A stretch of 64,000 nucleotides of DNA from an uncultured bacterium (GCA_903825355.1 CAIKAH010000001.1:2540-66539), one strand, 5' to 3'. Positions 5,694 to 16,860 are shown, counted from the first letter of the stretch. Numbers and translations are program-made. The notes: generated by a model from the sequence alone, not told the origin.

Positions 5694-5731
5694 TTAGTGT
5701 AGTATATGTCACATCTTGATTGAAATTTGAT

Positions 5732-5806
5732 TGGGGCGTGGCCAAGTGGTAAGGCAGCAGGTTTTGGTCCTGCCATTCGGAGGTTCGAATCCTTCCGCCC
5801 CAGCCA
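5732..5806 (+). tRNA. tRNA-Gln (anticodon TTG), CCA encoded
   Basis: Manual cloverleaf: acceptor TGGGGCG/CGCCCCA, D arm GCC-AAGTGGTAA-GGC, anticodon stem GCAGG/CCTGC with loop TT-TTG-GT, T arm GGAGG-TTCGAAT-CCTTC, then G-CCA. Confidence 0.9.
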
Positions 5807-5828
5807 ACATCATAAGGAAATAACTGCA

Positions 5829-6659
5829 GTGAGCAGCTTGCATCCTATCGAAAAAAATGTGAAGGCTTCCTCGTTTGAGGAAGCCTTCTTTCATTCTAAC
5901 GAAACATACATTCATCCAACCGCTGTCATCGGAGATCATGTCACGCTTGGCAAAGGCGTTAAGATTGGCCCCTTTTGCACTGTAGTTGGCAACACGAGTA
6001 TCGGTGACAACACGCGCTTGCATGCACATGTTACTATTGGGCTTCCCGGCCAAGTAGTTGGCGTATTGCAAAGCTTGGGAACCATTATCATTGGGAGCAA
6101 TTGCGAAATTCGTGAATTTGTTACCGTACATGGAGCACGGACTGATGAAGGCTCCACGCGCATTGGCAATAATTGCTACATCATGCATAATGCACATGTG
6201 GCGCACGATGTAATCATCGGCAATAATGTTGTAGTCAACCCAGATGTTAATTTTGGGGGACATACCGTAGTTGAAGATCGTGCCGTCATCATGACCGGCA
6301 GTGCCACACACCAGTTTACGCACATTGGTACCCTTACAGCGTTAGCACCGTTCAGCGGCATTCGACAGGACTTACCACCTTTTTGTATTTTTAGTGGCAA
6401 ACCAGGAGCTTTTTTTGGCCTCAATGTAGTGGGCTTGCGACGAAATGGCGTACCGCGTGAAAGTATTAATGCCTTAAAACACGTTACTAATCTTTTTTAT
6501 CTTGAAAAGCTCCCATTGCAAAAAATAACCGATACTAGCATTGCCGAGCCAAGCTGGGGAAGCGACCAGTACGTGCAGCAATTTTTAACCTTTGTACACA
6601 ATAGCACGCGCGGGGTTTCTCGCCGTTGCGGTAAAGAATCTGAAGCGGAACTACTATGA
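5829..6659 (+). CDS. lpxA: Acyl-ACP--UDP-N-acetylglucosamine O-acyltransferase (LpxA)
   Basis: Left-handed beta-helix hexapeptide repeats (IHPTAVIGDHVTLGKGVKIGPFCTVVGNTSIGDNTRLHAHVTIG...) plus a C-terminal helical domain (GLNVVGLRRNGVPRESINALKHV), colinear with E. coli LpxA. The track ORF starts at 5727 but that part is the tRNA-Gln. I place the start at the in-frame GTG at 5829; the exact start is uncertain. Confidence 0.85.
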   Translation: MSSLHPIEKNVKASSFEEAFFHSNETYIHPTAVIGDHVTLGKGVKIGPFCTVVGNTSIGDNTRLHAHVTIGLPGQVVGVLQSLGTIIIGSNCEIREFVTVHGARTDEGSTRIGNNCYIMHNAHVAHDVIIGNNVVVNPDVNFGGHTVVEDRAVIMTGSATHQFTHIGTLTALAPFSGIRQDLPPFCIFSGKPGAFFGLNVVGLRRNGVPRESINALKHVTNLFYLEKLPLQKITDTSIAEPSWGSDQYVQQFLTFVHNSTRGVSRRCGKESEAELL

Positions 6660-7663
6660 TAAAACTAGGCATCATCGGGCTTGGCAAAATGGGCGGCTAC
6701 CACGCTTCCATCTCACAAACGTTGCCCAACGTTAAACTCGTTGCTGTTGCTGACCCGCACCAATCAAATCTAGACAAAGTTACAGACCAAACGGTTATCA
6801 AAACTAACGATTTTACGCTCTGGCTTGATCAAGTTGACGCGGTTATTATTGCTATTCAAACCGCTAAGCATTATGCCGCAGCAAAAACATGCTTAGAGCA
6901 TGGAAAACACATTTTAGTTGAAAAGCCTATCACTAGTACTAGCGAGCAAGCAGCAGAGCTGTTTGCCTTAGCACATAAAAACAATCTTGCTTTGCATGTG
7001 GGACACGTTGAGCGCTTTAATGGCGCCATTCAAGAACTTAAGAAAATTGTTACTCGGCCACTTTTTATTGAGTGCCATCGCATGGGGCCATTTGTTCAGC
7101 GTGCAGCACGCGATAGTGTGGTGCTTGACCTCATGATTCACGATGTTGATTTGGTGCTGAGCCTGGTGAATGAAAAACCGGTCAGCGTTACAGCCCATGG
7201 CAGCAGTGTACACTCCCCACTAGCTGACGTTGCTAGCGTACAGCTTACGTTTCCTAGCGGGTGCATAGCTTCTGTAGTAGCAAGCCGTGCCTCCCAAATT
7301 AAACAGCGCAGTATGACGGTACATGAAAAAGAGGCGTTTTATCATCTAGATTTTACTACGCAAGATTTAGTAATTCACCGACAAACGAGCTCAAGCGTGC
7401 AGGTAGGACTCGATCAATTACGCTATCGCCAAGAGTCACTGATTGAACATGTTTTTGTACACAAAGATAATCCGCTCAAACTTGAGATCATGCATTTTAT
7501 TCGTGCTATTGAAACGCAACAAGACATGCGCAATGCCCTGCAGGACATTCAAGCATTAGATATTATTGTTGAAATTGAGCGGCAGTTGAGCGTGCAAATG
7601 GGTAACGCTTTGAACAGCACTACAACCCCTACGGAGCATCGTTCGACAACTATGACGATATAA
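6656..7663 (+). CDS. Gfo/Idh/MocA-family NAD(P)-dependent oxidoreductase (possible UDP-GlcNAc 3-dehydrogenase GnnA-like)
   Basis: N-terminal Rossmann motif MIKLGIIGLGKMGGYHA, then EKP (ILVEKPIT) and a family-typical C-terminal domain. The ATGA start/stop overlap with lpxA suggests translational coupling. Confidence 0.8.
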   Translation: MIKLGIIGLGKMGGYHASISQTLPNVKLVAVADPHQSNLDKVTDQTVIKTNDFTLWLDQVDAVIIAIQTAKHYAAAKTCLEHGKHILVEKPITSTSEQAAELFALAHKNNLALHVGHVERFNGAIQELKKIVTRPLFIECHRMGPFVQRAARDSVVLDLMIHDVDLVLSLVNEKPVSVTAHGSSVHSPLADVASVQLTFPSGCIASVVASRASQIKQRSMTVHEKEAFYHLDFTTQDLVIHRQTSSSVQVGLDQLRYRQESLIEHVFVHKDNPLKLEIMHFIRAIETQQDMRNALQDIQALDIIVEIERQLSVQMGNALNSTTTPTEHRSTTMTI

Positions 7664-7666
7664 TAA

Positions 7667-7873
7667 ACCGCTCTTTCTTGGCCCATTGGGCCTGCACCCA
7701 TTCGAGATGCTCAGGGTGAGCGGGGGAATAAACAGATGTACACAATTTTTCTCATACAAAAATCCACTAATCCTTTTTTAATAACGGTTAGCTTTTATTT
7801 AGGTAATATACAAAATGCCGCTCCCCCTGAGCAAGGTCGAAGGGCGAAGTCCGCCAGGACGAGAAAGAGCGGT
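7667..7873. repeat. Long imperfect palindromic GC-rich element (two inverted units of about 60 nt around an AT-rich spacer of about 90 nt)
   Basis: The outer 14 nt ACCGCTCTTTCTTG (7667-7680) pair with CGAGAAAGAGCGGT (7860-7873). The inner GCTCAGGGTGAGCGG (7710-7724) pairs with CCGCTCCCCCTGAGC (7818-7832) with 1 mismatch. The middle parts are partly complementary. It fills the spacer between the oxidoreductase gene and lpxI. Related units occur at 16.7, 33.0 and 58.8 kb. Confidence 0.75.
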
Positions 7874-7878
7874 ACCTA

Positions 7879-8682
7879 ATGATTGCTGTCATTGCCGGAA
7901 CCGGCTCTTTACCTACAGAGGCATGCAAAAAATTAGTACAAGAAGGCAAAGCTTTTTTTGTCGTATGCCTGTTCCCTGAAGAAAATCAGCAACAGTTGCA
8001 GGCCGTCATCGGGCATGGGATTGAGCTGGTAGCTGAAAAATGTTTTAAAGCTGGTACTATCCTACGCAAGCTCCAAGAGCGAAAAACAAAACAGGTATTG
8101 TTTATTGGCAAAGTTGATAAAAATAACCTTCTTAAGCAACTTAAACTAGATTGGCTAGCCCTCAAAATAATGGGTTCGCTTGTTACTCGTGGCGACAAAG
8201 ATGTAATGGAAGCGCTGCTCAAAGAGCTTGCCAGTAATGGTATAAGCACCATCCGCCAAGATGAAGTTTTAGATGGGTTGCTCGTCAAACCAGGCATACT
8301 CTGTGGAGAACTTACCAAAACATTAGAAGCGAGCATTCAACTGGGAATCAAAACAGCGCTCACCATATCAAAAGCTGATATTGGACAAACCGTGGTGGTA
8401 AAAGATGCTATGGTGCTTGCCGTAGAAGCAATAGAAGGAACCGACGCCTGCATTCAGCGAGGACTGGCATTAGGCAAAGAAGGGGTAGTCATCTGCAAGG
8501 CTGCGCACCAAGAACAAAATAAATCATATGATTTGCCAACGCTAGGCCCAAAATCACTTGCAAGCTTTAAACCAGGTGATGTAGCAGCTATCGCTTGGGT
8601 TGCCTCTCATACCTTAATTGCTGAAAAAGAGCAGTTTATTGCTCAAGCCAAAGAACTTGAGATTATGCTAATAGCAGTTTAA
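7879..8682 (+). CDS. lpxI: UDP-2,3-diacylglucosamine hydrolase LpxI (DUF1009 family)
   Basis: Has the MIAVIAGTGSLP N-terminus, FIGKVDK, and the C-terminal DIGQTVVVKDAMVLAVEAIEGTDACIQRG and KSYDLPTLGPKSL motifs typical of LpxI. It sits in an lpx gene context. Confidence 0.85.
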   Translation: MIAVIAGTGSLPTEACKKLVQEGKAFFVVCLFPEENQQQLQAVIGHGIELVAEKCFKAGTILRKLQERKTKQVLFIGKVDKNNLLKQLKLDWLALKIMGSLVTRGDKDVMEALLKELASNGISTIRQDEVLDGLLVKPGILCGELTKTLEASIQLGIKTALTISKADIGQTVVVKDAMVLAVEAIEGTDACIQRGLALGKEGVVICKAAHQEQNKSYDLPTLGPKSLASFKPGDVAAIAWVASHTLIAEKEQFIAQAKELEIMLIAV

Positions 8683-16705: not shown

Positions 16706-16860
16706 TCGAATCTTTCTGATCCCAACTGACTTCGCCAATACAAAACGAACGTTCTATATCTAGACAAACTCAGGGGGAGAGGATGATTATAACCCACATT
16801 GTTCCCGTCATCCTGGACTTGTCGATAGCCCCTGACCAACGGGGCCAAGAAGATGCGGGC
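16706..16860. repeat. Second copy of the GC-rich intergenic element (two diverged inverted units), between murD and ftsW
   Basis: ATCTTTCTGATCCCAACTGACTTCGCC...CTCAGGGGGAGAGG matches the reverse complement of 7817-7873 (CTCTTTCTCGTCCTGGCGGACTTCGCC...CTCAGGGGGAGCGG). CCCGTCATCCTGGAC...GGGGCCAAGAAGATGCGGG matches the reverse complement of 7667-7726 (CCCGCTCACCCTGAGC...GGGCCAAGAAAGAGCGG). Confidence 0.65.

Follow-up and report, generated by a model that had tools for sequence, protein, structure and literature searches.

In the genome of an uncultured bacterium, two neighbouring genes of a lipid A operon, one encoding a Gfo/Idh/MocA oxidoreductase and the other LpxI, are separated by a GC-rich palindrome of 207 bp, which raises the question of what this element is, how it came to lie there and whether the operon makes use of it. 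The window considered here is a stretch of 64,000 nucleotides (GCA_903825355.1, CAIKAH010000001.1:2540-66539), to which all coordinates given without a contig name refer. A sequence-only reading of the window had offered three options for the palindrome, namely a MITE-like mobile element, a REP-like dispersed element and a dedicated structured RNA or processing element; the second has held, and neither the strict MITE nor the dedicated operon RNA has. Probably the element consists of two units of a selfish, nuclease-linked DNA repeat, structured and REP-like, which form a non-autonomous dimer carried as a tolerated passenger in the lipid A operon. The features of the window that bear on the question are as follows.

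5727-6659: LpxA gene, upstream of the oxidoreductase gene (Pfam)
6656-7663, + strand: Gfo/Idh/MocA oxidoreductase gene (Pfam PF01408, PF22725)
7627-7648, + strand: relic partial third copy of the repeat in the tail of the oxidoreductase ORF (model positions 15-36; E = 3e-4 in a 600-nt search)
7667-7873, no strand: composite element, in which two repeat units form a convergent heterodimer around a spacer
7668-7723, + strand: left arm, a full unit of type II subtype A (TTTCTTGGCCC...; nhmmer model 1-52, 31.1 bits)
7668-7673/7718-7723, 7680-7684/7688-7692 and 7697-7699/7714-7716: helices P1, P2 and P3 of the left arm
7700-7713: conserved loop of the left arm
7724-7817, no strand: spacer, AT-rich, 94 nt, unique (a second copy is absent from the genome)
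7818-7872, - strand: right arm, a full unit of type II subtype B (TTTCTCGTCC...; nhmmer model 1-52, 36.8 bits)
7872-7867/7823-7818, 7860-7857/7852-7849 and 7844-7842/7827-7825: helices P1, P2 and P3 of the right arm
7879-8682, + strand: lpxI (Pfam LpxI_N, LpxI_C)
16706-16860, no strand: decayed convergent dimer of the same family, read by eye and below the nhmmer threshold used

The palindrome has the overall form first described for it, with two inverted arms of about 56 nt each that flank a unique spacer of 94 nt and 27% GC. Positions 7667-7683 pair with 7857-7873 (17 nt, 88%) and positions 7708-7723 with 7818-7833 (16 nt, 94%); the outer 14-mer that had been called perfect is so as RNA, and as DNA contains one T-G pair at 7679/7861. 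The arms have a GC content of about 60%, compared with about 27% in the spacer and 42% in the genome, and are thus GC-richer than the genome, as had been stated. It is also correct that the element fills the gap between the oxidoreductase gene and lpxI, a gap of 215 nt of which it leaves uncovered only 3 nt at the left end and 5 nt at the right. Computational folding, one of the checks suggested at the outset, gives 7667-7873 energies of -81.7 kcal/mol (+ strand, z = -6.4) and -84.5 kcal/mol (- strand, z = -6.2), and 0 of 200 shuffles equal the element's energy.

A genome-wide search for further copies of the arms had likewise been suggested, and it was carried out on the element's own assembly (G000; 1.39 Mb, 57 contigs), first by BLAST with the element and then by nhmmer iterated to convergence. 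In the BLAST search the arms alone find matches, at dozens of sites and often on both strands: the best other copy of the left arm lies at C4:23137-23193 (93% identity), and the right arm is 91% identical to C8:8501-8555, a copy that flanks a GIY-YIG gene. The iterated search defines a dispersed repeat of 50-56 nt with 136 copies in the genome, to which both arms belong with E values of 1e-7 to 1e-9 and whose consensus is CCGCTCTTCCA-CCCCTACGGGG-CG-TCC-TTCGACAAGCTCA-GGA-GGAGCGG. Each arm is therefore itself a complete folded unit, a fact missed by the sequence-only reading, which had recognised the palindrome correctly. The arms represent two sister subtypes, A and B, of a 'type II' subfamily and are placed face to face around the spacer. 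The first 8 nt of the spacer, GGGAATAA, are the unit's semi-conserved 3' tail, and they are found there because a GGGRATAA tail often follows the unit, as seen in the 3' flank profile. A literature search with the core motif as a string did not find a relevant paper.

In the unit, P1 (CCGCTC/GAGCGG) forms the outer stem, P2 is a hairpin that varies between copies, and P3, a helix of 3 bp, closes a conserved loop of 13-14 nt, TTCGAC-N2-3-GCTCA, the most conserved part of the unit. This architecture was assessed on an alignment of 107 distinct full-length copies by comparison with slid partners and with 500 shuffles. In P1 and P3, 94.4% of the cells are paired, versus 40-62% with slid partners, and 0 of 500 shuffles match the observed pairing or covariation score. 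All three pairs of P3 show exchanges (UA 67, CG 27 and GC 5; CG 75 and GC 28; CG 56 and GC 28), and the terminal pair of P1 is C-G in 86 copies and U-A in 15; these counts exceed the number of independent events because many copies share ancestry, and the pattern is nevertheless clear. The sequence of P2 varies freely yet stays complementary, as in CCCC/GGGG, GTCC/GGAC, CCTCC/GGAGG and GGCCC/GGGCC. The unit thus consists of three helices, two of which are backed by compensatory changes, so that the stems of the copies found genome-wide have been kept. As a separate observation, 13 copies (for example C41:11435-11507 and C2:32496-32572) carry an extra 22-nt hairpin, GTTCAGAACTTGCGTTCTGTAT, which lies just 5' of the TTCGAC loop and replaces the 5' strand of P3.

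Units occur singly, in pairs and in other arrangements, and are found in either orientation at some 100 further loci, ORFs included. Two kinds of pair recur. The 23 divergent (-,+) dimers have spacers of 14-26 nt and are mostly type I heterodimers that combine a P3 of TCC/GGA with a P3 of TGG/CCA. The 21 convergent (+,-) dimers have unique spacers of 28-142 nt, unrelated between dimers; among them are about ten A/B heterodimers of type II, to which the 207-bp element belongs. Convergent dimers either nearly fill intergenic gaps, with 2-24 nt left at six loci, or sit within long ORFs; at the lipid A junction, 4 and 6 nt lie between the ORF edge and the unit. The divergent dimers (spacers of about 18 nt) were seen to occupy larger intergenic regions. 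A flanking direct repeat that would indicate a target-site duplication is absent in 114 of 134 copies and at 7667/7873. Identical copies lie only within larger duplicated regions, and for that reason they are not evidence of recent transposition. Two sets of copies are identical together with their flanks (C2:7665, C14:1447 and C52:24701; C31:6928, C41:11435 and C52:31932), and these reveal either larger duplicated segments or collapsed or duplicated regions of the assembly.

The history of the lipid A junction was read from orthologous loci. The closest LpxI loci come from uncultured MAGs, one of which is labelled Candidatus Babeliales; the genome is small and encodes eukaryote-like C2H2 zinc fingers, and all 261 genomes available for the phylum belong to one order. 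The lineage fits Dependentiae/Babeliales, on which all of the evidence agrees. The gene order lpxA-oxidoreductase-lpxI is kept in every relative examined. Outside the genus, the stop codon of the oxidoreductase gene and the start codon of lpxI overlap (as ATGA in locus L040) or are separated by 0-45 nt. One congener (G001) has zero copies of the family and a gap of 9 nt, which follows a different C-terminal tail of the oxidoreductase; in a second congener (G002) this junction contains a flipped A/B dimer, in which the two subtypes have changed places and the spacer is unrelated, and there the left arm is translated as the C-terminus of the oxidoreductase. Since the genes overlap or nearly touch elsewhere and the site is empty in G001, the element is specific to this lineage, in which its arrival disrupted a translational coupling inherited from the ancestor. 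This comparison, too, had been proposed earlier, and its outcome, together with the 136 copies and their compensatory stems, bears out the REP-like option by presence in some relatives and absence from others. It also illustrates that selfish hairpins can split translationally coupled genes in a reduced genome.

The arms of the G000 and G002 elements align better when one element is flipped, and their spacers are unalignable in either orientation (of 500 shuffles, 432 and 272 equal or exceed the observed score). The two dimers may represent one insertion that was later inverted, or independent hits; the spacers fit both. In G000, the relic copy at 7627-7648 is translated within an extension of about 23 residues at the oxidoreductase C-terminus, an extension that is missing in other genera. 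The ORF in those genera ends shortly past the motif IERQLG(L/V)R, which reads IERQLSVQ here.

The alternative that survives best makes the element a cis-regulatory RNA of the lipid A operon, acting as an attenuator, an RNase III site, an mRNA stabiliser or a device that ties the translation of lpxI to the end of translation of the oxidoreductase ORF. We regard this as improbable, in spite of several features that suit it. The hairpin is very stable (-81 kcal/mol), the base of its stem lies 3 nt past a stop codon and 5 nt before a start codon, the purine-rich end of the right arm (GAGAAAGAG) stands at the position of a ribosome-binding site and is sequestered in the stem, and REPs of other bacteria affect mRNA stability (Di Nocera et al., 2013; PMC3733652). 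However, G001 and all other genera lack the element and have the two genes overlapping or almost in contact, so that the orthologous site is empty in most relatives. In G002 the flipped element with its translated left arm does not conserve the geometry, and some 100 further loci have like units, placed in either orientation and also within ORFs. A scan for promoters and terminators detected no promoter-like feature and no U-tract terminator on the sense strand of the element, the sole terminator-like match being on the antisense strand (7834-7818), and an Rfam scan of 7400-8100 at E values of up to 10 returned zero matches in 7667-7873. The palindrome should accordingly not be annotated as a regulator of lipid A synthesis.

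With neither a terminator nor a promoter on the sense strand, lpxI is most simply taken to be expressed by read-through. The element is probably transcribed through, and its RNA would fold into one long hairpin: the inter-arm hairpin has a computed energy of -80.7 kcal/mol, compared with -21.7, -18.8 and -5.9 kcal/mol for the local folds of arms and spacer, and a full transcript would favour it over these separate folds. In such a hairpin the stop codon of the oxidoreductase gene (3 nt 5' of the stem) and the start codon of lpxI (5 nt 3' of it) would become neighbours in the RNA, with at most about 10 nt between them at the foot of the stem, and the purine-rich stretch 5' of the lpxI ATG would be sequestered. 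A terminating ribosome would open the base of the stem, which could keep some of the coupling and help to explain why the insertion is tolerated. Because the geometry is not conserved in G002, coupling through the hairpin is put forward as a possibility and not as a finding.

In a second alternative, a RAYT (HUH Y1) transposase would have mobilised the element as a REP/REPIN doublet. REPs, BIMEs and REPINs resemble it in that they too are short GC-rich palindromes that lack target-site duplications and form head-to-head and tail-to-tail homodimers and heterodimers, among which heterodimers predominate; their spacers of 20-100 bp are conserved or variable, and copies occur in genes, notably those of DNA repair (PMC3733652). 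The high copy number of the palindromic unit, its inverted dimers, the lack of a target-site duplication and the intragenic copies, as known for GTAG and CGTC REPs (PMC3733652), would all agree with such an origin. The unit, however, is about twice as long as a REP, which is an imperfect palindrome of 20-40 nt, and folds into three helices; a terminal GTAG or CGTC tag is missing, CGTC being found internally and in some subtypes only; and a RAYT partner is lacking. A search of the genome for RAYT and IS200 genes gave one Y1_Tnp match, a truncated IS200-type gene with a stop codon that no repeat adjoins, and a search for IS110 found no gene. In 41 relatives the presence of Y1 genes is not correlated with that of the repeat, such genes occurring in 8 of 17 repeat-positive versus 8 of 24 repeat-negative genomes. 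RAYT mobilisation is therefore quite unlikely. The degraded IS200-type TnpA gene lies at C7 992-1210 (-), and the surrounding C7:1-2500 encodes eukaryote-like C2H2 zinc-finger repeat proteins with TGEKPF-type linkers.

A classical MITE, that is, a deletion derivative of a DDE-transposase insertion sequence that is mobilised in trans, would account for inverted arms of about 56 nt, a length of about 200 bp, an AT-rich interior and an intergenic position. It is very unlikely all the same. A target-site duplication is found neither at the locus nor across the family, the interior is shared by no other copy, and the arms, which have their own covarying internal structure, behave as independent units that occur alone and as tight divergent dimers as well. 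No insertion sequence with matching ends was found in the genome, where the lone transposase remnant is the unlinked, degraded IS200 gene. A chance palindrome or diverged intergenic spacer, for which nothing speaks but the non-coding position, is already refuted by the fold (z = -6.4), by the match of both arms to the 136-member family and by the covarying stems, and an ancestral gap of only about 0-45 nt also speaks against it.

The selfish, REP-like dimer that remains as the preferred reading has a candidate partner enzyme. The genome contains four small GIY-YIG paralogs, all four of which have the repeat next to them, in three cases on both sides. The one at C2:61131-61418 is a protein of 96 residues (PF01541, E = 8e-15); its gene has a copy of the repeat on either side, at 61085-61134 (-) and at 61441-61490 (+). 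The paralogs on C2, C9 and C42 adjoin type I copies. The gene at C8:8176-8448, which encodes an intact protein of 93 residues that is 53% identical to the C2 paralog, is framed by type II copies of subtypes A and B, each of which is half of a convergent dimer. The GIY-YIG proteins are 93-96 residues long and have Y6, Y16 and E64; the nearest PDB entries are the UPF0213 proteins 1zg2 and 1ywl, and an NCBIfam search gave no match. The C42 paralog (C42:24436-24720) has an in-frame TAA stop and is probably a pseudogene.

The association between gene and repeat extends across the phylum. The motif TTCGACN{2,3}GCTCANNNNGAGCG occurs in 72 of 261 genomes and 42 of 145 genera, at 1 to 101 copies with G000 the highest, and the reversed pattern used as a control gave 0 matches in the 261 genomes. 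Close homologues of the nuclease (E at most 1e-15) are present in 77 of the 261. Both are found in 47 genomes, the motif only in 25, the gene only in 30 and neither in 159, which corresponds to an odds ratio of 10 (Fisher p = 3.6e-14) when kinship between genomes is ignored; where there are at least 10 copies of the motif, the gene is present in 29 of 34 genomes. At 40 homologue loci, the motif lies within about 100 nt on both sides in 13 and on one side in 6, and the 13 two-sided loci always have the (-,+) arrangement, whatever the strand of the gene. The repeat family is thus very probably tied to a small GIY-YIG protein whose nuclease activity is predicted from its sequence. The repeats also persist without the enzyme, as follows from the 25 motif-positive genomes that lack the gene and from G002, which has 23 copies and no detectable GIY-YIG gene.

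The 5' ends of the units point inward in the gene cassettes and the 3' cores point inward in the 207-bp element; because of this opposite orientation of the arms, the element is not a simple deletion derivative of a cassette. The possibility that the spacer is the remnant of a GIY-YIG gene was considered separately and is ruled out by the arm orientation and by zero similarity.

A precedent exists in Neisseria meningitidis, where SsnA, a GIY-YIG protein of 94 residues belonging to cd10448, binds the NTS hairpin on single-stranded DNA only and cuts just upstream of it; mutations of Y6, Y17 and E64 abolish this cleavage, and ssnA genes are flanked by their own repeats, gene and repeat co-occurring across genomes (Chenal et al., 2025; PMC11893778). 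The system described here resembles Ssn/NTS in that a single-domain GIY-YIG gene of about 95 codons is framed by inverted copies of a hairpin repeat, which is scattered in tens to hundreds of copies, and in its enrichment among host-associated bacteria. Tyr6 and Glu64 correspond in position to those of SsnA, and the second catalytic tyrosine is residue 16 here versus residue 17 there. The repeat itself is different. NTS corresponds to the REP named CGTC-1 by Di Nocera et al. (2013; PMC3733652), and NTS/SRM has the form CGTC-ATTCCCGCG..GCGGGAAT; the present unit has 50-56 nt, three helices and a TTCGAC..GCTCA loop, and its consensus for this comparison, CCGCTCTTCCACCCCTACGGGGCGTCCTTCGACAAGCTCAGGAGGAGCGG, fails the NTS/SRM consensus CGTCATTCCCGCGMAVGCGGGAATCYRG and contains no ATTCCC..GGGAAT palindrome. 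Identity of the unit with CGTC-1/NTS is ruled out, as the sequences differ. The nearest solved relatives of the protein are the UPF0213 entries, and the likeness to SsnA seen here lies in size, layout and residues. Moreover, NTS is rarely intragenic (2%; PMC11893778), whereas many copies lie inside ORFs here.

The sequences thus establish the repeat family, its covarying fold, the build of its dimers, their presence or absence at the lipid A junction and the association of gene with repeat; what the nuclease recognises, how the family spreads and how it affects expression are inferences. By analogy with SsnA and NTS, the likely partner enzyme, a single-domain GIY-YIG nuclease of about 95 residues, would have the folded unit on single-stranded DNA as its target and would cleave close to it. 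The family would spread or be maintained as selfish DNA in the Dependentiae/Babeliales lineage, and one dimer would have come to occupy the junction of two ancestrally coupled lipid A genes. More specifically, the repeat could be the single-stranded site of a second, hitherto undescribed partnership between a GIY-YIG enzyme and a hairpin repeat, in which one genome would have two specificity pairs side by side, with type I units belonging to the C2, C9 and C42 proteins and type II units to the C8 protein, a proposal drawn from the analogy that we make tentatively and with rather more doubt than conviction. In such a partnership the enzyme would be a UPF0213-like nuclease, its site a three-helix unit of about 50 nt, and the 207-bp dimer would depend on the C8 nuclease; type II dimers would be tolerated at operon junctions and in ORFs because they fold out as hairpins. 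The family would extend the GIY-YIG/hairpin-repeat discovery of 2025 by a new repeat architecture and possibly a new branch of enzymes, and would carry it to a deep-branching phylum of obligate intracellular bacteria. Matched pairs of enzyme and site in one genome would provide natural specificity controls for tools based on single-stranded DNA nucleases.

Two other groups of repeats invite comparison. The Rickettsia palindromic elements (RPE) are likewise selfish, reside in an obligate intracellular host, lie in frame in genes and are tolerated in linkers; they differ in phylum and in sequence, and RPE-4 and RPE-6 are CGTC-type REPs (PMC3733652). QMITE2 of Coxiella burnetii is also small and highly structured, belongs to an intracellular host, occurs in 3' UTRs as well as between genes and comes in large and small versions (Wachter et al., 2018; PMC5896051). 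It is set apart by the GTAG REP that it carries, by direct repeats of 7-11 nt in its full-size form and by serving as a target of IS1111 (PMC5896051), none of which is seen here.

Copies of the repeat within genes show how far insertion is tolerated. By a crude ORF call (ORFs of at least 90 aa), 46 of the 136 copies overlap an ORF, and some of these overlaps are start-codon artefacts. In-frame copies with Pfam support are found in the following six genes, and convergent dimers in a continuous open frame at two gene junctions, all in G000.

C45:5785-7809: MutL, with a dimer between DNA_mis_repair and MutL_C
C11:924-2501: GpmI, with an in-frame unit
C42:34699-35934: GT4 glycosyltransferase, with a unit between its two domains
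C23:15465-17240: histidine kinase, with an in-frame unit
C13:5353-6789: TonB-like protein, with an in-frame unit
C42:33219-34754: HisRS-like protein, with an in-frame unit
C10:40838-43672: NagZ-NamZ junction, with a convergent dimer
C48:10403-12049: TrxB-thioredoxin junction, with a convergent dimer

Even essential proteins, MutL and GpmI among them, can thus take up selfish hairpins in their linkers without being destroyed. The alignment of GpmI to solved structures is loose around the insert, too much so to fix where the insert begins and ends. The MutL proteins of congeners lack both units and have a linker of about the same length as the stretch between the units here, and for this reason convergent dimers may be two units that bracket native DNA and not one module. 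The in-gene units were seen mostly in interdomain linkers. The NagZ-NamZ and TrxB-thioredoxin joins may be gene fusions mediated by the repeat, or may reflect chance in-frame read-through of adjacent genes.
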